In this document: positions 6,134 through 38,312 of the stretch, one piece after another | How positions within the stretch are numbered: the first letter of the stretch is position 1 | How the letters are laid out: each line of letters begins with the position of its first letter | Origin: Escherichia phage SZH-1 | Sequence record: NC_073319.1 | DNA length: 43,969 bases | Direction: 5' to 3' (one strand) | Notes under the pieces: model-generated | What the model saw: only the letters and a program-made list of their open reading frames with translations | Told to the model about the DNA's origin: nothing | Databases searched by the model: none | Program-made: the position numbers and the translations under genes

Positions 6134-6164
6134 GAATAGTAGTCTATTCTATCCCAGTGTGCAA
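6134..6164 (-). promoter_or_regulatory. Promoter TTGCAC-N17-TACTAT with perfect dyad GAATAG-tagt-CTATTC over the -10
   Basis: -35 at 6159..6164, -10 at 6136..6141, dyad 6134..6149; one member of the repeated promoter-operator family. Confidence 0.5.
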
Positions 6165-6171
6165 GTAAATT

Positions 6172-6345
6172 TTATTGGTGTGTTATGGAGTCGATGAATG
6201 CCAGTAACTCCCTTTCCGCTTCTGCTTCTCTTTCTTCAAGCGACCAGGTAGCGGATTCCTCTGTCGCCGTTGCTAAATCGGTTTTCGCATCAACCATCGT
6301 GTCGATTAACGTGATTAGTCGTTCAGCCTGTTCTTTAGTAATCAT
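6172..6345 (-). CDS. Hand-called small acidic ORF (57 aa, MITKEQAERLITLIDTMV...)
   Basis: ATG with AGGAG 9 nt upstream; antisense to a low-complexity plus-strand ORF that I reject. Confidence 0.35.
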   Translation of the reverse strand: MITKEQAERLITLIDTMVDAKTDLATATEESATWSLEEREAEAERELLAFIDSITHQ

Positions 6346-6395
6346 TGTTGCATCTCCTGCAATAGTCTCTTCGATTGTTGCGTTTGGTGAAATAG

Positions 6396-6436
6396 AACAA
6401 AAATGAGAAAAATGATACGCTGCTGTGTAGCAGCGT
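6396..6436 (-). terminator. Putative intrinsic terminator after the DUF551-like gene
   Basis: Perfect hairpin ACGCTGCT-gtgt-AGCAGCGT followed on the minus strand by a T-rich tract. Confidence 0.45.
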
Positions 6437-6469
6437 AAGTCACTCGGTAAAATCCCAAACTATTGAACA

Positions 6470-6670
6470 TCACACTTCCGGCGGCTCTGGTAACGGCATC
6501 CAGTGCGTCACGTACTTATCATAGTGATTCCAGAACGGCTTTCTACCGCCATCAGGAACTATGTAATAATCGTGCTGAACTGCGTTATTCAACGTTTCAT
6601 ACACCAGGAACTCTTTATTGGTACTACCGTTACCCGGCAGCATCTCGCTACACTTAATCCACTCACCCAT
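6470..6670 (-). CDS. DUF551-like small phage protein
   Basis: C-terminal WMPLPEPP-type ending common in DUF551 proteins; RBS GAGGTGA. Confidence 0.5.
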   Translation of the reverse strand: MGEWIKCSEMLPGNGSTNKEFLVYETLNNAVQHDYYIVPDGGRKPFWNHYDKYVTHWMPLPEPPEV

Positions 6671-6673
6671 AAA

Positions 6674-6817
6674 TCACCTCGTATTCATCACAGTTTGCAC
6701 ACCAGCTTTCCACGCCCGCCACGCGAGACGCGTCTTAACGTTCAGGTACTCTTTCTTTAAACCCTTGTTAACCGGCAGACCCTCTACGACGGCCCATCGT
6801 TCGAATGCTTCTCTCAT
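6674..6817 (-). CDS. Hand-called small ORF (47 aa, MREAFERWAVVEGLPVNKG...)
   Basis: Fills the gap between two listed genes; its stop lies next to the RBS of the next gene. Confidence 0.35.
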   Translation of the reverse strand: MREAFERWAVVEGLPVNKGLKKEYLNVKTRLAWRAWKAGVQTVMNTR

Positions 6818-6820
6818 AAC

Positions 6821-7012
6821 TCAGTCCTCCAGAACCTCACACTCACGGGGGTACACAACTATATACCCGGCGTCGCATTCAATTACGAATATACCGTCAA
6901 CTACGTCGTCCGCTTCAAATTCATCCCCAACGGCAATACCCCAGTAACTAAGCGGAAAATCGTCGCCATCGCACGGGTCCACATAATCAACATCAGTTAT
7001 TCGAATTCTCAT
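6821..7012 (-). CDS. Acidic hypothetical protein (63 aa)
   Basis: ORF in a translationally coupled early gene chain. Confidence 0.5.
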   Translation of the reverse strand: MRIRITDVDYVDPCDGDDFPLSYWGIAVGDEFEADDVVDGIFVIECDAGYIVVYPRECEVLED

Positions 7013-7266
7013 TTACGGCAACCTCCCTCAGAGTCGTCGGCACGAGCATCATGATTCGGTGCCGTTGCGAATGAGGCGGAAACAACATTGAAGAAACTAA
7101 CTGTTAAAGTTTCGCTCACAGAGTCCTCTAAATCCCATTCATCACCGTCTTCATCTAAAACGTATCGACGGCCGTCGTAATATACCCCCGACGAATACTT
7201 GTTACCCTTTACAAACCAATGCTGCACATCTGGACCGGATTCAATACAAATTAATTCTTCCATCAC
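7009..7266 (-). CDS. Hypothetical protein (85 aa)
   Basis: ATGA-type overlaps on both sides. Confidence 0.5.
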   Translation of the reverse strand: MMEELICIESGPDVQHWFVKGNKYSSGVYYDGRRYVLDEDGDEWDLEDSVSETLTVSFFNVVSASFATAPNHDARADDSEGGCRK

Positions 7267-7454
7267 TTCGCCCCTTTGAATTTAAAATTGTTGCCGATGA
7301 GTGTTAAATTATCGCGTAAGGCGAAACCAGGTTTCTTTCTTACCAGACCCCATACGTCGACCAGATTATCCTCGTCATACTCGTTCTCGTCCTGCAACAC
7401 TAATACATATTGTTCTCCGCGTTTAGTTTTCGCCAACTGACCCTTCTTAAACAT
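7263..7454 (-). CDS. Hypothetical protein, first gene of the leftward early operon
   Basis: Internal ATG at 7454 with GAGGAG about 9 nt upstream; directly downstream of a TTGCAT-N17-TACTAT promoter. Confidence 0.5.
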   Translation of the reverse strand: MFKKGQLAKTKRGEQYVLVLQDENEYDEDNLVDVWGLVRKKPGFALRDNLTLIGNNFKFKGAK

Positions 7455-7486
7455 AACCCCCACTCCTCTGTCTCGTTCCTATAGGT

Positions 7487-7517
7487 GAATAGTATCCTAT
7501 TATGTTGGGGTATGCAA
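7487..7517 (-). promoter_or_regulatory. Leftward promoter TTGCAT-N17-TACTAT with dyad GAATAG-tatc-CTATT
   Basis: -35 at 7512..7517, -10 at 7489..7494; same motif family as 6134, 10923, 29405 and 38257. Confidence 0.5.
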
Positions 7518-7599
7518 GAGATTCATTGAAAATGGTTACGTTGCCGTTGCGATTCTTCAGGGAAGGTTGTGCCTTTATTCTTATTACTTGGTAACTAAA

Positions 7600-7620
7600 G
7601 GGCAGGCTTAAGGCCTGCCC
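7600..7620. promoter_or_regulatory. GC-rich hairpin in the divergent control region
   Basis: GGGCAGGC-ttaag-GCCTGCCC, an 8-bp perfect stem inside the 495-nt non-coding region. Confidence 0.35.
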
Positions 7621-7897
7621 AATAATCGTTACATTTTTACGGTTGCGAATCTACGGCACTTTAAGAAAATCAGATACTTAAGAGATTTGCTGCCGTTGAG
7701 AATAGAGCTTGCCCAGGGCAACCGGAGATACTTAGGAAGGAAAGTTACAATAATTCTCGTGTTCAGTAAGCCTGTGTTTAACCCTTTGCTTGTCGCACGG
7801 GTTAAACATTCTTACAAGGTGAACAGGAATCAAAGTAACTAAGATACAGAAGCACCTTAAACGAAGATTTTCATAATGTCAATAGGTGCGATTATGT

Positions 7898-7926
7898 TTG
7901 ATTTCCCATTATTCGCAATGTATACT
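7898..7926 (+). promoter_or_regulatory. Rightward promoter TTGATT-N17-TATACT for the replication operon
   Basis: Hexamers at 7898..7903 and 7921..7926, about 30 nt before the 7959 gene. Confidence 0.45.
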
Positions 7927-7958
7927 TGGTTTCGTTAACTGATAATGAGGGTTTGAGA

Positions 7959-8129
7959 ATGACACAGAATGAAGTAGCTGAGCGTATCGGGGTTACTCGC
8001 CGCACGCTGAATAACTGGTTAAAGAGCGGGAAGTTCCCGGATTGTTGTATCCGCATTATGGGTCGCCGCCAGCCTGGTACGTTCGACCCGGAGAAAGTGG
8101 AAGCGTGGATTAAGGAGAACGTGAAATGA
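7959..8129 (+). CDS. AlpA-like HTH DNA-binding protein
   Basis: ATG at 7959 (listed ORF begins at TTG 7926); MTQNEVAERIGVTRRTLNNWLKSGKFP matches the AlpA/excisionase-type HTH pattern. Confidence 0.6.
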   Translation: MTQNEVAERIGVTRRTLNNWLKSGKFPDCCIRIMGRRQPGTFDPEKVEAWIKENVK

Positions 8130-8359
8130 CCGAGTTCCAGTCACGTGTATTCACGGCGGTCGTTTCATTAACACGTAAAAAAGGGTCGTGCAGCGTTATC
8201 GACTTGCGCCGTAGTTATTTTAAGTACTATAGTTCAGCCGTTATTGAAGGGTCGTTAAAGGCGCTGGTTAAATATGGTGTCGTGAAAAACGTTGGCGGGA
8301 AATATAGTGCCGTTGCTGAAGTTCGCGGAATGGCGGCCACTTTAGAAGACCTGGAATAA
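8126..8359 (+). CDS. Hypothetical protein with C-terminal ...TLEDLE tail
   Basis: ATGA overlap with upstream gene; shares the acidic EDLE C-terminus with two other replication proteins. Confidence 0.5.
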   Translation: MTEFQSRVFTAVVSLTRKKGSCSVIDLRRSYFKYYSSAVIEGSLKALVKYGVVKNVGGKYSAVAEVRGMAATLEDLE

Positions 8360-8417
8360 AAGAAAGCCCCGACGCGGTGAACGCCGAGGCTAAATTACTT
8401 GCTGAAGGAAATACAAC

Positions 8418-10661: not shown

Positions 10662-10662
10662 G

Positions 10663-10689
10663 TAAAAAGAAAGGGGCGTTAAGCCCCTT
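10663..10689 (-). terminator. Terminator of the XRE regulator transcript
   Basis: Hairpin AAGGGGC-gttaa-GCCCCTT overlapping the XRE stop codon, followed on the minus strand by TCTTTTT. Confidence 0.45.
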
Positions 10690-10894
10690 CACCGAACGCC
10701 AGCCACTTGGCGTCTACTTGCAGCACTTCCGCCAGTTTAAACAGCGTTGCCGGGCGGACGTCCTGAGTTACCCCGAGTGCGAGCTGGTTAATCGCACCCT
10801 GGGAAACGCCGGCCAGGACAGCCAGACGGCGCTGTGAGATGCCGAGTTCTTTACGGCGTTGTTCTACACGGATGCCTAGTTCAGATGGTTGCAT
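10679..10894 (-). CDS. XRE-family (Cro/CI-type) HTH transcriptional regulator
   Basis: RRKELGISQRRLAVLAGVSQGAINQLALG is a classic XRE HTH; AAGGAG RBS; divergent from a consensus promoter. Confidence 0.75.
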   Translation of the reverse strand: MQPSELGIRVEQRRKELGISQRRLAVLAGVSQGAINQLALGVTQDVRPATLFKLAEVLQVDAKWLAFGEGA

Positions 10895-10922
10895 GTTAAT
10901 TACTCCTTAGTCAGTTGATATG

Positions 10923-10937
10923 TGAATAGTACCATAT
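10923..10937 (-). promoter_or_regulatory. Operator-like dyad GAATAG-tacc-ATATT with TACTAT -10 upstream of the XRE gene
   Basis: -10-like TACTAT at 10925..10930 on the minus strand; no clear -35. Confidence 0.4.
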
Positions 10938-10958
10938 TAATTATTTTAGAAAAGCCCA

Positions 10959-10988
10959 TTGACAACCTGAATAGTTAGCTATTATAGT
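10959..10988 (+). promoter_or_regulatory. Near-consensus sigma70 promoter TTGACA-N17/18-TATAGT with dyad GAATAG-ttag-CTATT in the spacer
   Basis: TTGACA at 10959..10964, TATAGT at 10983..10988; near-identical copy at 13237. Confidence 0.65.
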
Positions 10989-11019
10989 TAGCCCATACCA
11001 AACGAGAGGAGAGAAACAA

Positions 11020-13236: not shown

Positions 13237-13265
13237 TTGACACCTGAATAGTTAGCTATTATAGT
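13237..13265 (+). promoter_or_regulatory. Near-consensus sigma70 promoter TTGACA-N17-TATAGT with the same spacer dyad
   Basis: About 30 nt identical to the promoter at 10959; upstream of the SSB-like gene. Confidence 0.65.
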
Positions 13266-13323
13266 TCTAATCACTGGCCGGGCAGTTTCCCGGAGTAAAC
13301 GAAACTGAAAAGCGAGAAATCAA

Positions 13324-14006: not shown

Positions 14007-14165
14007 ATGATGTTTTTCTGTAAGCACGTATACCGATATATGAAGCCACTTCCGTGGTACGCGGACGAGTACCGTGCCGGGTACAGGCATGTGTGGATTT
14101 GCCGTGATTGTATGAAAATAAGACTCAGCGAAACTAAGGCACTGGATTTAAGGAAAAAGAAATGA
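14007..14165 (+). CDS. Hand-called small ORF (52 aa) coupled to the polymerase gene
   Basis: ATG with AAGGG upstream; contains WICRDC; stop overlaps the polymerase ATG. Confidence 0.35.
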   Translation: MMFFCKHVYRYMKPLPWYADEYRAGYRHVWICRDCMKIRLSETKALDLRKKK

Positions 14166-16435
14166 GCTACTTATACCTGGACTTTGAAACATTCTCCGAA
14201 GCCGATTTAAAGAAAGTTGGCTCCTACGCTTATGCTGAACACCCGTCGACCGAAGTGCTCATCTGTACCTATGCTTTTGACGACAAGCCTGTGCATATAT
14301 GGGATTGCACAGACGGCAGCGACATGCCGGGTGATTTGCATCGCGCGTTACGCCGCCTGGTTAAGCCAAACAGCCGCATCAAGATGGTGTGGCACAACGG
14401 TGGACTTTTCGATAGGCTCATCATGAAACACTGCTGGGGCTTTGATATTCCGGTAAGCAATACCATCGACACTATGATTTGGGCGTTCCGTCACGCGCTG
14501 CCAGGGTCACTTGATGCGTTGTGCGAAGTGCTGGGCGTGTCTGCAGACAACGCGAAAGATAAACGCGGAAAGGCGCTGATTCAGCGTTTCTCTAAACCGA
14601 CGCCGAAGAACTACAAAATCCGCCGTTACACCGCTGAAACACACCCGGACGAGTGGGCGCTGTTCATCAAGTACGCCGTGAGCGACATCACTGCGATGCG
14701 TGAAGTGTTCCATAAGCTGCCGCGTTGGGGTAACTCCGAGTTCGAAGACCGCGTACTGGAACTGGACCAGTTAATCAACGACCGCGGGTTCTTTGTCGAC
14801 ACGGCTCTTGCGGAGGCGGCGGTAGCGGCAGTTGAACGCCACAAGCAAGAGCTAAAAAATGAGGCCCGCGCGAAATTCGGGGGGAAGCTAACGGGGAAAG
14901 ACTTCCTGCCCATCCTTCGGGAGCTGGCACCGGCCTACAATATTTATAATGCGCAGAAGGCAACGCTCGAAGGTTTGCTAGAGGACGACGACTTGCCTGA
15001 CGATGCGCGCACAATCATTGAGATGCGCCTCGGTGCGGCCTCCACGGCGTCGACAAAATACAAACCGCTCCTGCTAGGACGGTCCAAAGACGGGCGCCGC
15101 CGCGGTTGCATCCAGTACGGTGGGGCAAAGCGCACTTTACGATTTGCGGGTAAAGGGTTCCAACCGCAAAACCTGTCGCGCGGGTACTACCATGACGACC
15201 CGACTAACGAGGAAAAGAAACTTGTACGCCAGCCGTGGGAGTCCGACGAAGACTGGAACCGTCGTCTCAACCCCCTATCGTTCGGCATCAATCTGCTGCT
15301 AAAGGGTCGGGCGCATCGCCGTTTCGATGTGTCTAAACTAACGGCCTCGACTGTCCGCAGTTGCATCATCCCGGAAAAAGGTAATAAGTTGCTCGTTGCC
15401 GACTACTCAAACGTGGAAGGGCGCGGGCTAGCCTGGACGGCGGGGGAGACGTCCGCCCTTGAGACGTTCCGCGCGGGGATTGATATCTATTGCGCCACAG
15501 CTGGTAAGATGTTCGGCATGGACCCCGTAGAACTAAAAGCCACCCGTAAGGACCTACGTCAGGTCGGGAAATGTTGCGAGCTTGGCCTCGGCTATGAGGG
15601 GGGTGTAGGGGCCTTTATGACTATGGCTAAAACTTACGGGCTGGACCTCTTTAAAATGACAGAGACAATGCGGGGCACGTTCCCCGACCACATTTGGGCG
15701 GCTACCGCCCGTGGCTACGAATGGGCCAGAATTCAGGAGGCTAAACGCCCGCCAAAGCCTGGTAAAAAAGATGAACGGGCCTCTTATGTGCTGCCTAAAG
15801 AAGTCTGGCGCACCTGCGACGCCATTAAGCGCATGTGGCGGGAAGCCCATCCGGAAACAGTGAAATTCTGGAATGACCTTAAGGATTCGGTGATAGCCGC
15901 CATTAGAAATCCGGGACGAGAGTTTTGGGCGGGGGCCCGAGTACGCCTTAACGGCGACAGAGCCATCCGCATCTGGCGTACTAAAGAGAAAGACAGACAG
16001 GGTAACTTTGTGCCGGGTTGGTGGTTGTGCGTGGAACTGCCGTCTGGGCGCATCATGTCCTACCCTGGTATAGGCTTAAGCGTCACTAAAGAGACTGACG
16101 AGGATGGGCGCGTAACAACTAACGTTCGCATTAAGTACCAGGGCGAAAATCAGACCACCCGCCAGTGGACAACTTTGTACACCCACGGCGGAAAATTGTG
16201 TGAAAACATCATCCAGGCGTTGTGCCGTGATTTACTGGTTAACGGACTCCTGACGGTCGAGGCGGCGGGCTACCCAATTGTACTCCACGTACATGACGAA
16301 TGTGTTGCCGAAACGCCAGACACGCCAGAGTACACGGTTAAAGAGATGGGTGACCTGCTATGCTCATTACCTGAGTGGGCCGAAGGGTTCCCGTTAACAT
16401 GGGCTGGGGAAGAGGTGTACCGTTATGCTAAGTAA
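14162..16435 (+). CDS. Family A DNA polymerase with 3'-5' exonuclease domain
   Basis: Exo motifs YLDFETFS, HNGGLFD, YAVSDI; polymerase motifs ADYSNVEGR, RQVGKCCELGLGYEGG, VLHVHDE. Confidence 0.9.
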   Translation: MSYLYLDFETFSEADLKKVGSYAYAEHPSTEVLICTYAFDDKPVHIWDCTDGSDMPGDLHRALRRLVKPNSRIKMVWHNGGLFDRLIMKHCWGFDIPVSNTIDTMIWAFRHALPGSLDALCEVLGVSADNAKDKRGKALIQRFSKPTPKNYKIRRYTAETHPDEWALFIKYAVSDITAMREVFHKLPRWGNSEFEDRVLELDQLINDRGFFVDTALAEAAVAAVERHKQELKNEARAKFGGKLTGKDFLPILRELAPAYNIYNAQKATLEGLLEDDDLPDDARTIIEMRLGAASTASTKYKPLLLGRSKDGRRRGCIQYGGAKRTLRFAGKGFQPQNLSRGYYHDDPTNEEKKLVRQPWESDEDWNRRLNPLSFGINLLLKGRAHRRFDVSKLTASTVRSCIIPEKGNKLLVADYSNVEGRGLAWTAGETSALETFRAGIDIYCATAGKMFGMDPVELKATRKDLRQVGKCCELGLGYEGGVGAFMTMAKTYGLDLFKMTETMRGTFPDHIWAATARGYEWARIQEAKRPPKPGKKDERASYVLPKEVWRTCDAIKRMWREAHPETVKFWNDLKDSVIAAIRNPGREFWAGARVRLNGDRAIRIWRTKEKDRQGNFVPGWWLCVELPSGRIMSYPGIGLSVTKETDEDGRVTTNVRIKYQGENQTTRQWTTLYTHGGKLCENIIQALCRDLLVNGLLTVEAAGYPIVLHVHDECVAETPDTPEYTVKEMGDLLCSLPEWAEGFPLTWAGEEVYRYAK

Positions 16436-16791: not shown

Positions 16792-17102
16792 CTAAAGAGG
16801 GCCGCGTACAGAAATATGCAAAGGAGCGATTCGAGGCCCTTGGTGGCCTCGTTCGTAAACTTTCCTACGAGGGGCGTTCCGGCGCCCCTGACCTGCTGGC
16901 AATTCTCCCCGGCGGCGTCGTCTGGTTCGTCGAGGTTAAGAAAGACGAAAACACGAAGCCTGACCCCCACCAGCTACGTGAGCATGAGCGGATGCGCAAA
17001 CGTGGCGCAAATGTTTTTGTCGTTGGTTCGATAAAACAGATTGACACCCTAATAGCAGACTATTATAGTAAGCACATACCCCAACAATATAAGGAATTAT
17101 AA
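16788..17102 (+). CDS. VRR-NUC domain nuclease
   Basis: ATG at 16788 (listed ORF begins at TTG 16773); PD-(D/E)XK-like core ...PDLLAILPGGVVWFVEVKK... Confidence 0.65.
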   Translation: MTKEGRVQKYAKERFEALGGLVRKLSYEGRSGAPDLLAILPGGVVWFVEVKKDENTKPDPHQLREHERMRKRGANVFVVGSIKQIDTLIADYYSKHIPQQYKEL

Positions 17103-17589: not shown

Positions 17590-18269
17590 TTATCTGGTCA
17601 TTGTTCGACGGTTCGGGCCTCATGGCCCAACCGTGGGCGGAAGCGGGCCATACTTGCTATTGTTTCAACTACGACGGTGCCGACCACGGCGACTACGCGC
17701 GATTGGGCGCAAAAGTTGAACACGAGAACATCCACTATATAAACGCGTGGATTGACAATAAATTCGACTTCGAGGTTGCGCCGGATATTATTTTTGCGTT
17801 CCCTCCGTGCACAGATTTAGCTGTTAGCGGCGCAGCGCATTTCGAAACGAAGCGGAAGAAGAATCCAACTTTTCAGGTAGAGGCCGTGATTACATGCAAA
17901 GCGGCTGCGCGTCTGGCTAAAAAGTACAACGTACCTTATATGATTGAGAACCCGGTTAGCGTTCTTTCGTCTTTATGGCGCAAGCCTGACTATTCGTTCA
18001 ATCCGTACGAATACGGCGGCTATTTACCCGAAGACGACACGCACCCAATGTTCCCCGAATACATAAAACCGCGGGACGCGTACCCTAAGAAGACATGTAT
18101 TTGGGCGGGTAACGGTTTTGTGATGCCCGTTAAATCATGTGTCGCCGTGGTTGATGGGTACTCCGACCAACACAATAAATTAGGCGGTAAATCGGTGAGG
18201 ACAAAAACAATACGCAGCCTTACCCCGCGTGGTTTCGCAAAAGCAGTTCATGAGGCCAATCATGTCTAA
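17586..18269 (+). CDS. Compact DNA (cytosine-5)-methyltransferase-like protein
   Basis: Motif I LFDGSG, motif IV FPPCTDLAVSG, motif VI ENPV, RSLTPRGFAKAV near the C-terminus; only 227 aa. Confidence 0.55.
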   Translation: MIIWSLFDGSGLMAQPWAEAGHTCYCFNYDGADHGDYARLGAKVEHENIHYINAWIDNKFDFEVAPDIIFAFPPCTDLAVSGAAHFETKRKKNPTFQVEAVITCKAAARLAKKYNVPYMIENPVSVLSSLWRKPDYSFNPYEYGGYLPEDDTHPMFPEYIKPRDAYPKKTCIWAGNGFVMPVKSCVAVVDGYSDQHNKLGGKSVRTKTIRSLTPRGFAKAVHEANHV

Positions 18270-19686
18270 GTTTCAAAGGCGCGAGTACCAAAAGCTCATG
18301 ACTTCGTTCATGCTGCAACACCCTCGCTGTAATATCTGGTGCGGCATGGGAGGGGGTAAAACCTCCTCTACTATGTGGGTGCTTAATCGCCTGTTCCGCA
18401 ACGGGCAGCTTACGGAAGATGACCGCGTGTTAATCCTTGCCCCGTTACGCGTTGCATCAGGTACATGGCCCGCAGAACAAGAGAAATGGCAATTCCCGTG
18501 TCTGAGTGTCGTCGATGCGACCGGTTCAGAGAAGCGCCGCATCGCGGCGCTGGAGTCAGATGCTAACGTGGTGTGCACCAACTACGAAGTTATCGAGTGG
18601 CTGATTGACTACTACGGCAAAGACGACTGGCCTTTTACTGTTATTGTTGCCGATGAAAGCACGAAACTGAAATCATTCCGCAGCCGTTCTGGCGGAAGCA
18701 AGCGGGCGAAGGCGCTAAGCAAAGTGGCGTTCGGTAAGGTTAAGCGTTTCATTAACCTCACTGGCACACCGTCGCCAAACGGCCTCAAAGACTTGTGGGG
18801 GCAGAACTGGTTTATCGACGCTGGCGAGCGCCTCGGTTCATCATACACCGCATTCACCGACCGCTGGTTTAACTCGGTACAGAAAGGCAAATCCGCGATG
18901 GCGCGTGAGTATCATGCGCGCCCTGGCGCGGATAATGAAATTCACCAGAAGATGAAGGACATCAGTCTCACTATTGACGCCGCAGAGTGGTTCGGTTGCG
19001 AAGCGCCTATTATAGTGCAGGTTGAAATCGACCTGCCGAAGAAGGCGCGTCAGGCGTACATCGATATGGAGGAGAAGTTATTCGCGGAACTGGAGAGCGG
19101 AGAAGTTGAAGCGGCTAACGCGGCGGCGAAGACGTCAAAGTGTTTGCAGATTGCCTCCGGTGCCGTATATGTGACGGGCGACGACGGAGAAGCAACGAAA
19201 GAATGGGAGAAAGTGCACGACACAAAACTTGACGCACTTGAGTCGATTGTTGAGGAGTTACAGGGTGCGCCATTACTGGTGGCCTATCAGTTTAAGCACG
19301 AACTGGAGCGCATCCTGAAACGTTTCCCGCAGGCCCAGGCGTTTGCAAAAGGCGCTAAGGGTAATAAGCAGATGGACGCGTGGAACCGTGGTGAAATTGA
19401 GATTTTATGCGTTCACCCTGCGTCAGCGGGCCATGGTTTGAATTTACAGGACGGCGGGCATCATCTGGCATTTATTTCGCAAGGCTGGAACCTTGAGCAC
19501 TATTTGCAGGTCGTTGAGCGCATCGGCCCGGTACGCCAGAAACAGGCGGGCCACGAGCGCCCGGTGTTCCTGTATCATATCGTTGCTAAAGACACGCTGG
19601 ACGAGGTTGTTGCCGCGCGTGCAGACGAGAAGAAATCTGTCCAAGAAGAGTTGCTTAATTACATGAAGAGACGAGGTAAGAAATGA
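18262..19686 (+). CDS. SNF2-family (DEAD/DEAH-like) helicase
   Basis: ATG at 18262 (listed ORF begins at GTG 18229); GMGGGKT, DEST, LTGTPSPNG, C-terminal helicase motifs. Confidence 0.8.
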   Translation: MSKFQRREYQKLMTSFMLQHPRCNIWCGMGGGKTSSTMWVLNRLFRNGQLTEDDRVLILAPLRVASGTWPAEQEKWQFPCLSVVDATGSEKRRIAALESDANVVCTNYEVIEWLIDYYGKDDWPFTVIVADESTKLKSFRSRSGGSKRAKALSKVAFGKVKRFINLTGTPSPNGLKDLWGQNWFIDAGERLGSSYTAFTDRWFNSVQKGKSAMAREYHARPGADNEIHQKMKDISLTIDAAEWFGCEAPIIVQVEIDLPKKARQAYIDMEEKLFAELESGEVEAANAAAKTSKCLQIASGAVYVTGDDGEATKEWEKVHDTKLDALESIVEELQGAPLLVAYQFKHELERILKRFPQAQAFAKGAKGNKQMDAWNRGEIEILCVHPASAGHGLNLQDGGHHLAFISQGWNLEHYLQVVERIGPVRQKQAGHERPVFLYHIVAKDTLDEVVAARADEKKSVQEELLNYMKRRGKK

Positions 19687-28526: not shown

Positions 28527-28905
28527 CTTCTCTGCCCTCAAATATTCCGTCTAAGCCCATGATAACCTCGGCTTCGAACAAACTTATGCCGTAACCGGCG
28601 ACATCACGAAACGCTACCAAATCTTGCCATTTGAGCGCATCGCGCGGGATTATAACGATAGTATCATCTGTTTCGCGCTGTAGGAATTTAATGGCACGGT
28701 ATTTCTCGAACACGTCGATAAGAGAAACGGGGCATTCTGGCCCCGTCGCTTCTTTCATCTGCGGTTCTTTAATCACGCCCATTGCAATCAAAGCCGCCTG
28801 GTGCCCCGCCGCGATGTCGTCGAATTGCTTACGTTTCTGGCGGTCGACAAAGCACCATTGCGCAAATTCATACAGCGCTTTTACTTTTCCGAGAGTTTCT
28901 CGCGG
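28519..28905 (-). CDS. Tail assembly chaperone -1 frame extension (gpT-like part of a G-T fusion)
   Basis: Frame open without a start codon from 28905 to 28519, overlapping the last 25 nt of 28881..29297; slip site GGAAAAG next to the stop. Confidence 0.5.
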   Translation of the reverse strand, partial: PRETLGKVKALYEFAQWCFVDRQKRKQFDDIAAGHQAALIAMGVIKEPQMKEATGPECPVSLIDVFEKYRAIKFLQRETDDTIVIIPRDALKWQDLVAFRDVAGYGISLFEAEVIMGLDGIFEGREDG

Positions 28906-29297
28906 CTATCGGTGTGGTGCTTAACTACGGCTTCTGCCAACCCACTGTACTGGTCAAACAGGTTAGCCAGCGCCTCTTTGCTGAACGGTTCGTCGAATGA
29001 CCAACCGGTGACGATTTCCACGGCAAGCTGCTTGTTCAGGTCCATCACCCGCCAGCCCTTCTCATCATTATAACGCGCCCAGTTATTCAGTGCCTCACAC
29101 TCTTTATCTAATGGCGCAAGTTCTTCCGTAAGGCGTCGAATTGCCGTTGTGTAGGCGCGGCCCGCGCTAACCCCGACATCACAATCAGGACCAATGACCT
29201 GCAACCATTCTCCGGAGTCTTTACCACTCGGCAGAAGGATAGGCATTTTAGTACCGGCAGCGTGTCGGTCAGCAAAATAGAAATCAGAAAGTTTCAT
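28881..29297 (-). CDS. Tail assembly chaperone (gpG-like)
   Basis: Directly upstream of the tape measure gene; AAGGA RBS; carries the frameshift site. Confidence 0.6.
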   Translation of the reverse strand: MKLSDFYFADRHAAGTKMPILLPSGKDSGEWLQVIGPDCDVGVSAGRAYTTAIRRLTEELAPLDKECEALNNWARYNDEKGWRVMDLNKQLAVEIVTGWSFDEPFSKEALANLFDQYSGLAEAVVKHHTDSREKLSEK

Positions 29298-29404
29298 TCT
29301 TTAGTCCTTTGGTTAAGAGGTTACAGGTTAAGGTTGACGCGCCAGACGGGAACCACCCGCTTTTCGTGTGCGACACTAGGCGCAAACTTATTCTAGCACA
29401 CTAC

Positions 29405-29433
29405 TTGCACACCCCAATATAATAGGGTACTAT
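29405..29433 (+). promoter_or_regulatory. Promoter TTGCAC-N17-TACTAT with dyad AATAG-ggta-CTATT for the plus-strand island
   Basis: 27-nt core caccccaatataatagggtactattca identical to the copy at 38263. Confidence 0.5.
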
Positions 29434-29461
29434 TCACCTGTAACTTACTGAGGAAATAATT

Positions 29462-29788
29462 ATGCGTAAATTAGTGTTAGCTCTTGGTTTTATGTCTTTT
29501 GCTACTTTTGGGTCTCCGTGTGAACAGGTGTTTAGTGAATCCGTTCTTATGACTTCTGGTGTGCTTGATAGAGCCGACCCTACTATTGTAAAGGCATTTA
29601 AGGACTCTACAGTTCGCGAGTGTGAGGCCGCCGTGGAGGTTGGTAAATCGGGCCTACCCCCGCAGGCCGTAACCTACACAGTGATACGTTCGGTAGAGAA
29701 AAACGGAGATGCTTTCTATAGCCTACTGACAGCCACCCGTCTGCAAATGGTAATGACAGGGTGGGCGATAGGCGCAGAAAGTAAATAG
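29462..29788 (+). CDS. Secreted/periplasmic small protein (108 aa)
   Basis: Signal-peptide-like MRKLVLALGFMSFATFG; two Cys; GAGGAAA RBS. Confidence 0.55.
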   Translation: MRKLVLALGFMSFATFGSPCEQVFSESVLMTSGVLDRADPTIVKAFKDSTVRECEAAVEVGKSGLPPQAVTYTVIRSVEKNGDAFYSLLTATRLQMVMTGWAIGAESK

Positions 29789-29853
29789 TTGCCTTTATTT
29801 AAAGGAATCCACTGTGGTTAAATAGAACAAATCCTAAACACGAGGAAGTAAGC

Positions 29854-30984
29854 ATGGCCCAGAAGAAAATAACCGACGAACAGTTACAGGAAGAATTGAA
29901 CGCCGGGATGAAGAATGTAGACATCGCCCGTAAATACGGCATCTCAGACCGAGTTATTCGTATCCGTAAAGCGAAGCTGGCTAAGAAAGGTGTAGGCCAC
30001 GGGCGTGACGTTAGCCACCTTGTCCCAGACGGCTACAAGATTAAAGGGACGTCGTCTCTGGTAGACGAGTTCGGCAATACTAAGTTGCAATGGGTTAAGA
30101 CAGACACCGACGCTGAACGTCAGGTCGAGTTGATGAAAGCCGTGATTGAAGGCATGAAGTCAGAGATTACGCCAGTTGCGCCGGCTAAAGCGACTCGAGC
30201 CAAACGCGACGACAAGCTACTCAATCTTTACACGGTATCTGATTTCCATCTCGGTATGCTTGCCTGGGCCGACGAGAGCGGCGACGACTGGGATATAAAG
30301 ATTGCGGAAGACCTGTTCTCTCGTTGGTTCGACGCGGCGTTTCAGAAAGCACCGGATGCAGGAACAGGAGTTATTAACCTGCTGGGTGATTTCGCGCACT
30401 TCGATAGTCTGGATGCCGTTACACCTGAGTCGCGTCACGTGTTGGACGCAGACACTCGCTACCAGAAACTCGTCCGCTACATGATTCGTATGGTACGCCG
30501 TGTTGTAGATATGGCACTGGTTAAACATAAAAATGTTCGCTTGCTTATCGTACAGGGGAACCATGACCCTGTAGGCTCTGTATGGCTGGCTGAAATGTTC
30601 ACAGTTTTATATTCGAACGACAGCCGAGTGATTGTCGATACGTCGCCGGATGTTTACAAGATGGTGCAACACGGAAAAACGACGTTGTTCTTTCACCACG
30701 GGCATAAGGCGCGATTCGATGCTATCGAACCGGTTATGATTGCCAAATTCCGCAAAGCGTTCGGCGAGAGTGTTTACAGCTACGCCCACGTCGGCCACCT
30801 GCACCACCAGAAGATTGTAGAAAGCCGTAACATGATTGTTGAGCAACACCGCACCTTAGCGGCTAAAGACGCCTACGCCTCCCGCGGCGGATGGATGTCG
30901 GGCCGTAGTGCAAACGTAATTACTTATAGCGCCGAATATGGCGAGGTCGCGCGTTTAACTATTTCACCGGAGATGTTGGGATGA
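29854..30984 (+). CDS. HTH-fused calcineurin-like metallophosphoesterase
   Basis: N-terminal HTH NVDIARKYGISDRVIRIRKAKL; all five metallophosphoesterase motifs: SDFHLG, LLGDFAHFD, VQGNHD, FFHHGH, HVGHLHH. Confidence 0.75.
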   Translation: MAQKKITDEQLQEELNAGMKNVDIARKYGISDRVIRIRKAKLAKKGVGHGRDVSHLVPDGYKIKGTSSLVDEFGNTKLQWVKTDTDAERQVELMKAVIEGMKSEITPVAPAKATRAKRDDKLLNLYTVSDFHLGMLAWADESGDDWDIKIAEDLFSRWFDAAFQKAPDAGTGVINLLGDFAHFDSLDAVTPESRHVLDADTRYQKLVRYMIRMVRRVVDMALVKHKNVRLLIVQGNHDPVGSVWLAEMFTVLYSNDSRVIVDTSPDVYKMVQHGKTTLFFHHGHKARFDAIEPVMIAKFRKAFGESVYSYAHVGHLHHQKIVESRNMIVEQHRTLAAKDAYASRGGWMSGRSANVITYSAEYGEVARLTISPEMLG

Positions 30985-31211
30985 CTTCAAAATACAACCG
31001 CACAATGACAAACACCCACGGCAGCACTATGACTGTAGACGTTTACGATGTGCTGCGCGCCTTCGACATCCGCGACCCGGCGCTACAGCACGCATTGAAG
31101 AAGCTACTGTGTATGGGCCTTCGCGGACACAAGGATACCGGGACAGACTTAGCGGAAGCAATTGAAAGTCTGGAGAAGTTACAGGAGTACAGGAGTAACA
31201 TTGATGAGTAA
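30981..31211 (+). CDS. Hypothetical protein (76 aa)
   Basis: ATGA overlap with the phosphoesterase gene. Confidence 0.5.
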   Translation: MTSKYNRTMTNTHGSTMTVDVYDVLRAFDIRDPALQHALKKLLCMGLRGHKDTGTDLAEAIESLEKLQEYRSNIDE

Positions 31212-31380: not shown

Positions 31381-31384
31381 GAAA

Positions 31385-34466: not shown

Positions 34467-34468
34467 TT

Positions 34469-34981: not shown

Positions 34982-34984
34982 AAA

Positions 34985-35164
34985 TTATTCCTCTGACTTA
35001 CGGCGACGTCGCTTAGTACCACCGCCGTTGTTGTGCGCTTCTTCGTTGTCCAGTTGAGTCGCAACCAGTTCATCCGCTTCTACCACACCGCGAACAGGCA
35101 TTACCTGACCGTCAACAATATCAACGTGGGTGTACTTTTCGCGGATTACATAATTATCTGCCAT
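34985..35164 (-). CDS. Hand-called small ORF (59 aa)
   Basis: MADNYVIREKYTHVDIVDGQ...; preceded by AAGGAAAGG RBS. Confidence 0.4.
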   Translation of the reverse strand: MADNYVIREKYTHVDIVDGQVMPVRGVVEADELVATQLDNEEAHNNGGGTKRRRRKSEE

Positions 35165-35178
35165 GACCTTTCCTTATT

Positions 35179-35196
35179 ACGGCCCCGAAGGGCCGT
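35179..35196 (-). promoter_or_regulatory. RNA hairpin with UUCG loop between decoration gene and next gene
   Basis: Minus-strand ACGGCCC-uucg-GGGCCGU, immediately 5' of the RBS of 35164. Confidence 0.4.
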
Positions 35197-35200
35197 TGTA

Positions 35201-35545
35201 TTAAGACACAGTTGCTACAGTGCTGCTGGAGATAATATTACCATATACGTCGTGAACAACCACTTTATACGTACCGGAGTCGGTAGTAGCAACAGTAGTG
35301 GCCTTGGTGTACGTAGCCTCGGTAGCGCCTGCGATGGCGTTGTTATTCTTATACCACTGGTAGGAATAAGGGGCCAGACCACCAGTTACCGCAACAGTGA
35401 GAGTCAATGCGGCGGGTGCGGTAACCTCGGTAGTAGCGTTAAGTGGGGTAGAAAAAGACGCAGGAGAAATAGTCGCCATGTCAATCTTAGCACCTGGGGC
35501 GTCAGCGGAGACGCCGGTGATGCGCCGCTTCAATACGTCTGCCAT
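35201..35545 (-). CDS. Ig-like domain head decoration protein
   Basis: YSYQWYKNNNAIAGATEATYT...DSGTYKVVV is an Ig-like signature; immediately after the capsid gene. Confidence 0.6.
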   Translation of the reverse strand: MADVLKRRITGVSADAPGAKIDMATISPASFSTPLNATTEVTAPAALTLTVAVTGGLAPYSYQWYKNNNAIAGATEATYTKATTVATTDSGTYKVVVHDVYGNIISSSTVATVS

Positions 35546-35570
35546 ATAGGAATCCTCTTAGTAAATGAAA

Positions 35571-35590
35571 AGAGGGACCGAAGTCCCTCT
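35571..35590 (-). promoter_or_regulatory. Hairpin/attenuator after the capsid gene
   Basis: Minus-strand AGAGGGAC-uucg-GUCCCUCU followed by UUUCAUUU. Confidence 0.45.
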
Positions 35591-35606
35591 CGATTATAGC
35601 TTAACC

Positions 35607-36656
35607 TTAAGACCCGACACCAGTTACCAGGAAGGCGATCGGTACGTGCTTACGTTCAACAACACGGTTCCAGTTGGAGGCGTTCGCCAGGTCCTGCCAG
35701 GAGGCAGAACGTGCGACAGTCTCGGTGCCGTTGCCGGTGATTACTGCGCTGGTGAAGCTGTAGCCCAGTGGGTGCAGCAACCAGGTCTTACGGGTCCACA
35801 GGGTTTCTACGCCACCGCCGTTGCCGCGGGACTCTTCGCGCTCATATGCCAGCGGATTGGTCGGGTTACCTTCACCGTAACCGATAGCGCCGTTGCCGAA
35901 GATGATAGAGATGAACTTACGGCTGCCACCAGTACCGACTACGGTCATGCTGTCATCAACAATCACGCGGTAGCCCTGGTAGGTGGCGAACAGGGTGTCG
36001 TTGTCAGCATCTTTGATGAAGTCAATAAGCTGCTGCTTACGGGCCTGCGCGTATACGAAGCTGTGCATCGCGATAGCGCCCAGCACTTCACCACCGTTGC
36101 CCATCAGCGCATCGCCCATAGTCTGGGTAGCGTCGATGAACGCGCCTGCGTCGAAGCCCAGAGTAGAGGACACGTCGATTACCATGTCGTTCTGCTCGTG
36201 ATATGCGTCGGTAGCGGCTACGTTGTCGTTGTATAGACCAAGCGCAGTAGCAATCAGACGGCGTTGGGCCTGGCGCTGCCAGAAATTATCCAGACGGGAT
36301 GCTACAGATTGCAGCGGGTTCTGGCTGGTCAGTTCGACAGTCAGGTCAGCCTGGCCGAAACCTTCGTTCAGGTAGGCAACGCGTGCCATCATCTCACCGG
36401 TCTGCACGTTACGCGGGGTAGCGATGTCCTGGTATACGTCGTTCGAGTAGTTCGGCTCGATGGAAGTGTCAATCGCTTTCCAGAAAGGAATATTAGCGAC
36501 GTTGGACGGGCCGCGGGCAATCTCGGCAGCGTATGGGGTCGGGGTCAGAATACCAGACTGGAAGAATGCGGTTTTTTCTACCGGGTCCTCGGTCATATAA
36601 GACGCCAGGACCGGGATGTTGCCAGTTACGATATCGCCGATAGTGGTAATTGCCAT
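35607..36656 (-). CDS. Major capsid protein
   Basis: 349-aa ORF directly after the scaffold gene and before the hairpin and decoration gene. Confidence 0.8.
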   Translation of the reverse strand: MAITTIGDIVTGNIPVLASYMTEDPVEKTAFFQSGILTPTPYAAEIARGPSNVANIPFWKAIDTSIEPNYSNDVYQDIATPRNVQTGEMMARVAYLNEGFGQADLTVELTSQNPLQSVASRLDNFWQRQAQRRLIATALGLYNDNVAATDAYHEQNDMVIDVSSTLGFDAGAFIDATQTMGDALMGNGGEVLGAIAMHSFVYAQARKQQLIDFIKDADNDTLFATYQGYRVIVDDSMTVVGTGGSRKFISIIFGNGAIGYGEGNPTNPLAYEREESRGNGGGVETLWTRKTWLLHPLGYSFTSAVITGNGTETVARSASWQDLANASNWNRVVERKHVPIAFLVTGVGS

Positions 36657-36658
36657 TA

Positions 36659-37360
36659 TTATTTCCTCAGGGCTTTAAGTTGCCGTTCAAATTCGGCAGG
36701 GTTCGATTTATACAGAGCTAAACGCTCCGCTTCACTCATGTCTTTAAACGCTGGTGCGGCCCCGCCGCCTTTGCTACCGGAAGCCCCGCCGCCGGAAGCT
36801 GCATTTGCTTTAATCAAATGCGAAAACGCTTTGTGTTCACGCAGGTATTTGCGGAACTGTTCCGGGTCAGTCGTGATTACGTTGCCATCTGCACCGACAA
36901 ACTTAGTAACCACGTCATCGCCTTCAAACTCAGTCTTAACGAACGGCGCAAGAATGTCTACAGCTTCCGGGGTAATAAAGTCACCCGCGAAAGAGCCTAA
37001 CACCGCTTTACGTTCGCTGCCGAGGATGCGCTCCGCCATTCTGGAGATGCGACCATCTTTCTCAGCTAACACCGGGTCATACTGGCTACGAATCGTCTTT
37101 TCGAACTCGTCCATCTTACCCGCGGCTTTTAACGCCTCCTGGTGTGCGCGCTGCCGTTCTTCTTCGGCCTCTTTTGCTTTACGGGCTGCTTCTTTCTTCT
37201 CCGCCAGCAACGCTTCCTGGTTGGCCTTAAGCCCGGCGACTTCTTTCTCAATCAGCGCCTGAACTTCTTCGGCTGTGAACATTTTCGGCGCGTCACCGCC
37301 ACCGGCTTTATCTTCTGCCCCAGCTTCTTCCTGGAACGGATAACGTAAAAAACGATTCAT
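36659..37360 (-). CDS. Scaffolding protein
   Basis: ATG at 37360 (listed ORF begins at TTG 37414); helical, charged, A/E/K-rich. Confidence 0.65.
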   Translation of the reverse strand: MNRFLRYPFQEEAGAEDKAGGGDAPKMFTAEEVQALIEKEVAGLKANQEALLAEKKEAARKAKEAEEERQRAHQEALKAAGKMDEFEKTIRSQYDPVLAEKDGRISRMAERILGSERKAVLGSFAGDFITPEAVDILAPFVKTEFEGDDVVTKFVGADGNVITTDPEQFRKYLREHKAFSHLIKANAASGGGASGSKGGGAAPAFKDMSEAERLALYKSNPAEFERQLKALRK

Positions 37361-37413
37361 GGTCAGTATGTCCCCTGGACGTTGGAACCCGGGCCACCCG
37401 GATTTACATGTCA

Positions 37414-37456
37414 AGAATAAATTATTCCAACATGCAAGGCAACTATTCCAGAATAT
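37414..37456 (-). promoter_or_regulatory. Candidate leftward promoter upstream of scaffold with CTATTC..GAATAT dyad
   Basis: Minus strand reads (A)TATTC-tg-GAATAG then TTGCCT-N17-TATTCT; weak -10. Confidence 0.25.
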
Positions 37457-37706
37457 TCCTCACGTAATCCTGCAACATGAACACTTTCAGTCTCAGTTGC
37501 CGTACACATTCGGCATTCTGAACGTCGATAGCCAAATCTTCGTCAGCGTCGCTACTTGGGGGCGCCAGTTTGCACGGCGGCTGCATCATCGTCGTATCCG
37601 GGGATGGAATTGGCGTTTGCGACGGCGCGGGACTTGAGCAGGACGCGAGCATCGTCAAAAGTGCACACGCTACGGCCAGGTGTTTCAATGTACTTAACGA
37701 CTTCAC
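37443..37706 (-). CDS. o-spanin (Rz1-like outer-membrane lipoprotein)
   Basis: GTG start with AGAGGTGA RBS; lipobox LTMLASC; Pro-rich mature part; overlaps the i-spanin 3' end out of frame. Confidence 0.6.
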   Translation of the reverse strand: MKSLSTLKHLAVACALLTMLASCSSPAPSQTPIPSPDTTMMQPPCKLAPPSSDADEDLAIDVQNAECVRQLRLKVFMLQDYVRNILE

Positions 37707-37938
37707 GGGTAATCACCTCTGATTTCGTCTTGCCTTCGTTGTCAGCGGCTGCGGCCTTTGATTCGTCCTGCTGCTGCCGTTGTGTTTTCTTCGCTAACTC
37801 AGCCTGTGCTTCCTGCTGTTGCTGCGAAACGAGATTCGCCCGGCCTTCGTTCCAGCCGCTGCGGTACTGGTAGATGCCGTGTGCGTAAGCCAGGATGATG
37901 AAACATGCTCCCGCTACGACAGTTGCTTTAAGATTCAT
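37552..37938 (-). CDS. i-spanin (Rz-like)
   Basis: N-terminal TM VVAGACFIILAYA, Q-rich coiled-coil, periplasmic C-terminus; AAAGGAG RBS. Confidence 0.7.
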   Translation of the reverse strand: MNLKATVVAGACFIILAYAHGIYQYRSGWNEGRANLVSQQQQEAQAELAKKTQRQQQDESKAAAADNEGKTKSEVITREVVKYIETPGRSVCTFDDARVLLKSRAVANANSIPGYDDDAAAVQTGAPK

Positions 37939-37952
37939 GTTTCTCCTTTCTC

Positions 37953-37982
37953 GATAAGTAAAGCCCCGCCTTAAAGCGGGGC
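37953..37982 (-). promoter_or_regulatory. GC-rich hairpin immediately 5' of the i-spanin RBS
   Basis: Minus-strand GCCCCGC-uuuaag-GCGGGGC followed by UUUACUU. Confidence 0.4.
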
Positions 37983-38161
37983 GCTAGGCCTTATCATTTA
38001 AACATAGAAACGGCGTAATCTCAGTAAACCAGTTACTTTTTACACAAGCAATAGAGTATGGCCCTTCCGAACGCGTCAGCGTAACTACACTCGGACTTAA
38101 CGTCCGGCTCCGTTACCTGCCACGCCGCGGTCGCTTGTTCATACTTCACAAGCTCAGGTGG

Positions 38162-38204
38162 AGCTTAGCACATTTTTGGTGAAAAGTCAACTATTCGAAT
38201 AGTT
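38162..38204 (-). promoter_or_regulatory. Candidate leftward promoter with perfect 16-bp palindrome AACTATTCGAATAGTT at the -35
   Basis: TTGACT (rc of 38185..38190), N17, TAAGCT; palindrome at 38189..38204. Confidence 0.3.
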
Positions 38205-38256
38205 TATTCCAACATTTACAATTGAGTGGAATAACAGGAATACATAAACAAATAGT

Positions 38257-38285
38257 TTGCGCACCCCAATATAATAGGGTACTAT
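38257..38285 (+). promoter_or_regulatory. Promoter TTGCGC-N17-TACTAT with dyad AATAG-ggta-CTATT for the lipoprotein unit
   Basis: Same 27-nt core as the promoter at 29405. Confidence 0.5.
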
Positions 38286-38312
38286 TCATTCTATCGAACC
38301 GGGGAGGCCGTC

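Follow-up and report, generated by a model that had tools for sequence, protein, structure and literature searches.

The genome of Escherichia phage SZH-1 (NC_073319.1) contains a short inverted repeat, AATAG-N4-CTATT (hereafter the dyad), which recurs within predicted promoters on both strands. Based on comparative sequence analysis and a structural model, we propose that the dyad is probably a dispersed operator of a small Cro-like repressor, the XRE protein, which would bind it as a dimer and block RNA polymerase. The stretch of DNA analyzed, referred to here as the window, is 43,969 bp in length and is a Kagunavirus genome (Guernseyvirinae, siphoviruses of E. coli), complete or nearly so. 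It is ~91% identical to Escherichia phage hz69 and Kagunavirus PDP21P8 and ~72% identical to the Salmonella phages of the genus Jerseyvirus, and its gene order is that of its annotated relatives.

Enrichment of the dyad

A preliminary description of the window had proposed that an operator with the sequence GAATAG-N4-CTATT is shared by at least seven promoters on both strands. Exact matches to this form were found seven times when counted by strand, at six places (6134, 7487, 10969, 13246, 29421, and 38273), against an expectation of 0.01, and none of 100 shuffled sequences reached that count. The symmetric 14-bp core, AATAG-N4-CTATT, was perfect at seven places (expected ~0.03), the added seventh being at 17051. 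When all 5-mer dyads in the window with gaps of 0 to 10 were ranked, AATAG-N4-CTATT was at the top (7 copies; shuffle maximum of 2), and it also ranked first in three other Kagunavirus genomes (6–7 copies; shuffle maxima of 2–3). The remaining frequent 5-mer dyads in the window were GC-rich terminator stems. Sites with no mismatch and one mismatch numbered 7 and 4, respectively, versus 0.03 and 0.9 expected, and a relaxed core, AATA-N6-TATT, was present in 8 copies versus 0.6 expected; sites with two mismatches were at the background level (18 versus 13 expected). In controls for spacing and arm order, arms separated by N5 or N7, or swapped in order, were at background counts in the window. 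Together with the shuffled-sequence controls, these counts confirmed that the enrichment of the dyad over background is genuine.

Six of the seven perfect sites were located in non-coding DNA, which by a crude gene call makes up 10.5% of the window, and the seventh fell within the final 50 nt of one gene, immediately ahead of the following gene. A hairpin or terminator function for the sites was rejected because the stems were weak (-1.8 to -5 kcal/mol) and the sites were upstream of the predicted transcript starts.

Promoters carrying the dyad

Every site was within a predicted sigma-70-type promoter whose -10 hexamer ended 28–59 nt before a start codon. Relative to the -35 and -10 hexamers, whose coordinates were all re-read from the sequence, the dyad occupied three registers, with centers at -12.5, -18.5, and -33.5, and all ten sites fell within -40 to -6 of predicted -35/-10 pairs.

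In the four class 1 promoters, TTGCA(C/T)- or TTGCGC-N17-TACTAT, the dyad supplied the -10 hexamer (span -19..-6, center -12.5). Two of these promoters faced leftward, TTGCAC-N17-TACTAT at 6136..6164, which had a perfect dyad at 6135..6148 over the -10 (GAATAG-N4-CTATTC, 6134..6149), and TTGCAT-N17-TACTAT at 7489..7517 (perfect dyad over the -10 at 7488..7501), which would serve the early small-gene operon. The other two faced rightward, TTGCAC-N17-TACTAT at 29405..29433 (perfect dyad over the -10 at 29421..29434), ahead of the accessory island 29462..31211, and TTGCGC-N17-TACTAT at 38257..38285 (perfect dyad over the -10 at 38273..38286), ahead of a small island starting from an ATG near 38313. 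The promoter at 29405..29433 stood back to back with the leftward promoter region of the tail operon, whose extended -10 promoter (TGC-TAGAAT, the reverse complement of 29390..29398) was conserved from Kagunavirus to phage SE1. A promoter-like site, GTTACA-17-TATATT, was also present there on the reverse strand (29444..29416), and the region of the 38257 promoter likewise scored on the reverse strand (TCGATA-18-TATATT).

The leftward promoter of the XRE gene itself was an extended -10 promoter, TGG-TACTAT (reverse complement of 10926..10934), with no usable -35. An imperfect dyad, AATAGTACCATATT (one mismatch, left arm AATAT), was positioned over its -10 at 10925..10938, centered at ~-12.5 in the class 1 register, and was invariant in 34 unique Kagunavirus sequences. 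This geometry suggests that the XRE gene would be autoregulated via a weaker site. Five TTGCA(C/T)-N17-TACTAT promoters had originally been described; those at 6136, 7489, and 29405 were as stated, that at 10925 had an imperfect dyad and no TTGCA -35, and that at 38257 had TTGCGC as its -35.

The three class 2 promoters, TTGACA-N17/18-TATAGT, all faced rightward and scored 11/12 against the consensus, and in them the dyad filled the spacer (span -25..-12, center -18.5). They were at 10959..10988 (N18; replication operon, divergent from the XRE gene; perfect dyad 10970..10983), 13237..13265 (N17; SSB/DNA polymerase unit; perfect dyad 13247..13260), and 17041..17069 (N17; methylase/helicase unit; perfect dyad 17051..17064, in the last 50 nt of the VRR-NUC gene). 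The preliminary description had placed the dyad correctly in the first two of these spacers, but had given the first as 17 nt rather than 18 and had missed the third promoter.

In the two class 3 promoters, TTGACT-N17-TATATT or -TAAGCT, both leftward, a dyad with one mismatch covered the -35 (center -33.5). The first, TTGACT-N17-TATATT at 2698..2726 (dyad 2718..2731), was downstream of the lysis genes and directed toward small genes and the terminase; the ACTAG arm of its site was also kept in Jerseyvirus (Ent3 40956, PVP-SE2 1537, and JD01 16117). The second, TTGACT-N17-(TGC)TAAGCT at 38162..38190 (dyad 38182..38195), was ahead of the spanin and head genes. Half-sites in inverted order had been described near 38189 and 37443. 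The former are better read as the normal-order dyad with one mismatch at 38182..38195 over the TTGACT -35, the same geometry as at 2718..2731, and near 37443 there was a single half-site only, which is not above chance. A perfect 16-bp palindrome, AACTATTCGAATAGTT, at 38189..38204 consisted of the dyad arms in swapped order (CTATT-CG-AATAG) and abutted the -35 hexamer of the leftward promoter 38190..38162; arms in this order were not enriched genome-wide.

Overall, the dyad was present in the promoters of two leftward early operons, three operons of the replication module, the XRE gene, and both rightward islands of the late region, which agrees with the earlier proposal that most early and accessory units carry it.

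Three other sequence features were observed around these promoters. An ACCCCAA block between the -35 and the dyad was shared by the paralogous class 1 spacers (29411..29417, 38263..38269, and 7505..7511) and partly kept in Jerseyvirus as ACCAAAT; on the opposite strand it reads TTGGGGT and could act as a divergent -35 (TTGGGG-16/17-TGCTAGAAT at the tail operon). In addition, a leader motif, AACGAGAGGAGAG (variants AACGAGACAGAGGAG and AACGAGAACGGAG), was located between the -10 and the start codon at at least four promoters of different classes (6105..6130, 7464..7485, 10995..11015, and 2664..2695), and may be either merely a strong ribosome-binding region or a common RNA element. Finally, many Kagunavirus relatives had an extra perfect site, AATAG(G/C)TTACTATT, at the place of 6451..6464, where the window has two mismatches. 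This site adjoined the terminator that corresponds to 6416..6437 of the window, with no obvious promoter around it.

Conservation of the dyad across lineages

At orthologous promoters of Kagunavirus, Jerseyvirus, Serratia phage Tsm2, and Enterobacter phage phiEap-2, the arms of the dyad were retained, with drift in the 4-bp center and the flanks. For instance, the center of the 17051 site differed among orthologs (CAGA, CGAA, TCCG, and others) and the arms were the same. Both Tsm2 (ATAG-N4-CTAT, 4 copies versus 0.2 expected) and phiEap-2 (AATA-N6-TATT, 8 copies versus 0.3 expected) had the dyad at orthologous class 1 and class 2 promoters. With both arms conserved, a variable center, and exact spacing, the sites have the geometry expected of a dimeric regulator, in keeping with what the preliminary description had suggested.

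The promoter of the SSB gene was examined in eleven genomes, in which the gene was located by tblastn and its upstream region read, so that the sequences were not picked by motif. A -10 hexamer and a conserved leader were present in all eleven, as was TTGACA, which in mckay reads TTGACC. Given as the 4 nt after the -35, left arm, center, and right arm, the spacer was cctg-AATAG-ttag-CTATT in the window and K1H (with tctg as the leading nucleotides in XY1 and actg in L044), agtt-AATAG-tact-CTATT in Ent3, tctt-AATCG-tact-CTATT in PVP-SE2, gccg-AATAG-aata-CTATT in Tsm2, and gcac-AATAT-taaa-CTATT in phiEap-2. It was ctga-ATTAT-taaa-CTATT in SE1 and PhiSTP2 and gctt-AGGCG-caac-CAAGT in mckay, a Dhillonvirus that lacks the XRE gene. 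The spacer arm was therefore held in four lineages and lost in two (SE1 and Dhillonvirus) where the promoter itself persists. The left arm of class 2 sites is in the spacer, where sigma-70 requires no specific bases, and the existence of three registers shows that the dyad is independent of any single polymerase contact. Together, these comparisons support the dyad being a module separate from the RNA polymerase hexamers. De novo searches for dyads and repeats in SE1, L045, and klb_E found no alternative operator.

The SSB (gp2.5-like) leader (13266..13323) had a hairpin, CACTGGCCGGGCAG(N2-4)CCCGGAG, between the promoter and the start codon. Kagunavirus, Jerseyvirus, phiEap-2, and SE1 share the hairpin, Tsm2 has it with a variant stem, and it may be a translational operator or attenuator of the SSB gene.

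The XRE protein as the candidate binder

The XRE protein (71 aa; 10679..10894, leftward) matched the Pfam family HTH_3 (E = 1.2e-12), and a phmmer search of the PDB identified 434 Cro as its closest relative of solved structure by sequence (E = 4.9e-7; residues 6–68; both proteins 71 aa). The AlphaFold2 (AF2) model of the XRE protein had five helices (pLDDT 84), and its top Foldseek match was 2cro (40% identity, TM 0.72–0.78), followed by the 434 repressor, HipB, SinR, C.AhdI, and P22 C2. Judged by its sequence and predicted fold, the XRE protein is a full-length homologue of 434 Cro. In all six aligned XRE homologues the recognition helix began with a glutamine, equivalent to Gln28 of 434.

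The XRE gene adjoined two of the sites, which were in a 125-bp divergent control region with their centers 45 bp apart. An XRE homologue was identified in all four dyad-bearing lineages and was absent from the dyad-less Dhillonvirus. In addition, when all open reading frames (ORFs) of the window were tabulated against five genomes, the XRE protein was the only DNA-binding protein common to all the dyad-bearing lineages. These findings are consistent with the XRE protein being the binder, the candidate that the preliminary description had named as possible.

Two helix-turn-helix candidates were identified in the window, the XRE protein and an AlpA-like protein (56 aa, HTH_17; 7959..8129, rightward). 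The latter, which had been put forward as an alternative binder, was 86–88% identical between genera and missing from dyad-less SE1, but the presence of the dyad in Tsm2 and phiEap-2, neither of which has an AlpA-like protein, led to its rejection. The AlpA protein of P. aeruginosa is large and Q-like, and the 6-bp element it recognizes is bound by a monomer (PMC9371919). The 56-aa HTH_17 protein of the window is unrelated to it, and a loading site for an antiterminator of the AlpA/Q type was also rejected. A NinH-like protein (357..593, leftward) was rejected as a binder because it was absent from Tsm2 and present in SE1.

Proposed mode of action and alternative explanations

We propose that a dimer of the XRE protein would occupy the 14-bp site with one helix-turn-helix per 5-bp arm, as 434 Cro does on its operators. 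The bound dimer would block RNA polymerase because every site is between -40 and -6 of a host sigma-70-type promoter. The XRE protein would be made from its own extended -10 promoter, which bears the weaker site, and on building up after infection would lower the activity of the promoters with perfect sites, which drive two early operons (leftward), three operons of the replication module, and both accessory islands. The promoters with one-mismatch sites (the XRE promoter and the two TTGACT promoters) would respond later or less. The preliminary description had allowed for either a repressor or an activator, and the positions of the sites within the polymerase footprint favor a repressor. Repression is also favored by the near-consensus class 2 promoters, which would need no activator because of their 11/12 consensus score, and by the lack of a common helical phase, the sites not being on one shared helical face.

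Several observations weigh against this proposal. The XRE proteins of Kagunavirus and Jerseyvirus are only ~51% identical, yet the arms of their dyads are identical, and three of the four positions equivalent to the base-contacting residues of 434 differ between the two genera (QGAINQ versus QSLITH). Covariation between the recognition helix of the XRE protein and the half-site was sought and none was found, the arms being the same across 36% to 100% protein identity and so offering no covariation that could be used. SE1 and PhiSTP2 keep an XRE homologue (39%) yet have almost no sites and no dyad enrichment, and the region beside the XRE homologue in Tsm2 and SE1 had no good site. The right arm overlaps the -10 sequence (CTATTATAKT or TACTAT), so its conservation is partly due to promoter function. 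In addition, a footprint over 38 Kagunavirus loci was uninformative because whole promoters are conserved there, and an information profile was circular for the arms, its instances having been chosen by arm match, and was replaced by the gene-anchored promoter tables. Lastly, if the leftward late promoters are repressed as well, a separate route to late expression would be needed, and none was identified.

It is possible, though doubtful, that the same operator and Cro-like binder have a dual role, with repression at the -10, spacer, and -35 sites and stimulation of a divergent promoter from an upstream site, much as lambda CI, from OR2, is a repressor of PR and an activator of PRM. Measured from the tail-operon extended -10 promoter, which faces leftward, the center of the 29421..29434 dyad is at ~-44.5; the perfect site at 10970..10983 is at ~-57.5 from the XRE promoter, which lacks a usable -35; and the tail-chaperone/imm region of Jerseyvirus has a symmetric back-to-back pair, TTGCAT-N7-dyad-N7-CGTCAA. 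However, neither -44.5 nor -57.5 is a classical activator position, small Cro-type proteins are known as repressors, and the tail-operon promoter is independent of the dyad, because it is kept in SE1, where there is no dyad at this place. We regard it as unlikely that the dyad is a true protein-binding site for some other binder, either a host factor of Escherichia, Salmonella, Serratia, and Enterobacter or a phage protein without a recognizable DNA-binding domain. Such a binder would fit with the arms being identical where the XRE recognition helix differs between genera, with SE1 having an XRE homologue and no regulon, and with the dyad-bearing phages all infecting Enterobacterales. A host factor is made unlikely, however, by two Salmonella phage lineages differing in having the sites: SE1 and PhiSTP2 infect Salmonella as Jerseyvirus does, yet the sites are lost. 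No E. coli regulator is known to us to have AATAG-N4-CTATT as its consensus, and for another phage binder, no further protein of the window was both common to all dyad-bearing lineages and plausibly DNA-binding.

The symmetry could also be a by-product, with no dedicated binder, of the opposed -10-like elements (TATTAT/TACTAT) of bidirectional promoters, or of promoter copies spread by duplication, which we consider very unlikely. The arms are indeed AT-rich, like -10 hexamers, the 29421 and 38273 sites score as promoters on the other strand too, a Jerseyvirus site (PVP-SE2 27267) has promoters annotated on both strands, and a long identical block is common to the class 1 promoters. Opposed, overlapping -10 hexamers for divergent genes are plausible at the 29421 and 38273 sites and at the Jerseyvirus tail-chaperone region. 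However, there is no leftward gene to serve at 13247 or 17051, and the reverse complement of the spacer arm, CTATTCA, is without the essential final T of a -10 hexamer. The spacer arm is also kept across lineages while the center and the -35-proximal flank change, and it decays in SE1, where the promoter survives. Between genera, the register of the dyad at the tail-chaperone region differs by 3 bp, whereas the distance between the two -35 hexamers remains 28 bp. There is next to no likelihood that the repeats are promoters of a phage-encoded RNA polymerase, the reading given for the Kagunavirus fBC-Eco01; seven PHIRE-predicted "phage promoters" have been listed per Kagunavirus genome (PMC9825357, PMC7203180). 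No polymerase gene was evident in the annotations of the relatives or among the large ORFs of the window, every site coincides with canonical sigma-70 hexamers 17–18 bp apart, and the element occurs in both orientations relative to transcription.

A more far-reaching role for the Cro-like XRE protein would be the silencing of the whole genome, resulting in a repressed episome (a carrier state or unstable lysogeny) without CI or an integrase. This is conceivable because nearly every promoter bears a site, including some that face late genes, but we rate it as rather unlikely. Turbid plaques and immune, possibly episomal lysogens have been reported for the Jerseyvirus SGP-C (PMC8790156); the related Serratia phage eta forms unstable lysogens and has no recognizable repressor (PMC3918226). 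A circular, 44,086-bp Kagunavirus-like genome with XRE and HTH genes (CP088689.1) was deposited as the "plasmid" pC16EC0033-2 of E. coli strain C16EC0033, a human blood isolate, and could represent either a carrier state or phage carry-over in culture. Against silencing, Kagunavirus sequence was found in none of the 5,426 complete RefSeq E. coli genomes, and when bacterial genomes were searched for related prophages with both the XRE gene and the dyad, only one Jerseyvirus-like scaffold, in an unrelated assembly, was found. That 19-kb scaffold (NZ_JACVEL010000022.1, in a Taishania pollutisoli assembly; GC 0.49) had an XRE gene and four dyad sites, and is most likely assembly contamination. Whole-genome silencing, if true, would be relevant to safety, as these phages are claimed to be unable to persist in cells.

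Genome setting

The small early genes and the lysis cassette of the window (1..7463) are transcribed leftward, and the primase operon, whose first gene is that of the AlpA-like protein, and the replication genes (to 19874) are transcribed rightward. Beyond the replication genes, the structural genes are leftward, broken by the two rightward islands (29462..31211 and ~38313..38755). RNA polymerase, integrase, and CI-type repressor genes were all absent from the annotations of seven relatives. The large ORFs of the window (primase-helicase, DNA polymerase, helicase, tail, tape measure, portal, and terminase) likewise included no evident RNA polymerase, and an Rfam scan of the window matched zero families.

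Between the leftward early operon and the primase operon (7464..7958) there were 460–495 bp without a convincing gene. This gap contained a bidirectional terminator (7600..7620) and a dyad-free promoter, TTGATT-17-TATACT (7898..7926), upstream of the AlpA-like gene. The gap at the matching place in Jerseyvirus was longer still. It is possible that the gap holds a replication origin.

A 5' leader, GCGCCTAGTGTCGCACACGAAAAGCGGGTGGTTCCCGTCTGGCGC (29300..29398, leftward), upstream of the tail-assembly-chaperone gene (28881..29297) was conserved from Kagunavirus to SE1. Its predicted fold (RNAalifold, five lineages) has two hairpins enclosed by an outer stem, compensatory changes being present in 5 of 17 pairs. 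It had no match in Rfam and is a candidate for a structured leader RNA in the tail operon. In addition, inteins were observed in the DNA polymerase and helicase genes of the Jerseyvirus phages Ent3 and PVP-SE2 and were not present in the orthologues of the window (14162..16435 and 18229..19686).

Significance

Phages of Kagunavirus and Jerseyvirus are widely isolated and are promoted as strictly lytic agents against E. coli and Salmonella. The proposal offers a testable regulatory map consisting of one 71-aa protein, one 14-bp site, and approximately ten promoters, and it amends the interpretation in print, by which the repeat marks promoters of a phage polymerase. In these genomes a "repressor" gene is at times marked as an indicator of lysogeny; a Cro-type regulator of the lytic cycle is the likelier identity for it. 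The promoter-plus-operator modules are compact, combining near-consensus promoters with a 14-bp site in three registers, and could be of use as engineering parts.

Comparison with known systems

The repeat itself is not new, because two Kagunavirus genome papers (fBC-Eco01 and Golestan) already list seven PHIRE promoters each, and in one of the two the consensus is tgAATAGTa-ccTATTat-T and the sites are attributed to an RNA polymerase of the phage (PMC9825357, PMC7203180). The element and the count of seven per genome are the same as those reported here, whereas those papers propose neither an operator nor a regulator. Our literature search found no paper that reads the repeat as an operator, links it to a Cro-like protein, describes the three registers, or traces it through lineages.

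A close parallel is with phage 434. The operators of 434 Cro are 14 bp in length, with conserved outer bases and a center that is not contacted. The XRE protein and 434 Cro belong to the same family, with 71 aa, a five-helix fold (predicted for the XRE protein), and ~40% identity, and the dyad resembles the 434 operators in its length, conserved outer bases, variable center, and outermost base, which is A in both. An HTH_3 protein with a predicted five-helix fold, a symmetric 14-bp site with fixed spacing, and the overlap of the sites with predicted promoters, three features of a 434-type pair, were found in the window. In both phages the sites overlap promoter hexamers and the regulator gene is beside a divergent control region. 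The half-sites differ (AATAG in the window versus ACAA in 434), as does the arrangement of the operators: 434 has three tandem sites at each of two operators (OR1-3 and OL1-3), whereas the window has single sites over eight to ten promoters genome-wide and none of the tandem tripartite kind. The sole HTH_3 gene of the window was that of the 71-aa XRE protein, and no S24 peptidase-type repressor or integrase was annotated in the relatives. Having no partner CI, no peptidase-domain repressor, and no integrase, the XRE region is not a lambdoid immunity region.

The role proposed for the XRE protein is that of lambda Cro at PL and PR, a small early repressor that lowers early transcription. Lambda Cro acts on two promoters, and the late promoter PR' is without an operator; in the window, nearly every recognizable promoter bears a site, two or three of them facing late genes. 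The restriction-modification C proteins (C.AhdI, C.BclI, and C.Esp1396I) share the fold by Foldseek and are small dimers that bind short dyads over their own promoter. They serve one or two promoters of one operon through paired C-boxes and cooperative tetramers, whereas the window has no restriction-modification context.

Systems in which one phage regulator acts through many short, dispersed sites include the stoperators of mycobacteriophage L5 gp71 and the inverted repeats of Streptomyces phage phiC31. The L5 stoperators are asymmetric, are in one orientation within transcribed regions, and stop elongation, and those actinophages are temperate and have large repressors. The sites in the window are symmetric and in promoter cores, six of the seven perfect ones are non-coding, and the phage family is regarded as lytic; stoperator-type sites, as in the cluster A mycobacteriophages, were accordingly rejected as a description of the dyad. 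A small Cro-type repressor with palindromic operators over promoters is a regulator of the classical kind. What would be less usual here is its occurrence without a CI partner in a family regarded as lytic, and its reach, with single sites at approximately ten promoters.

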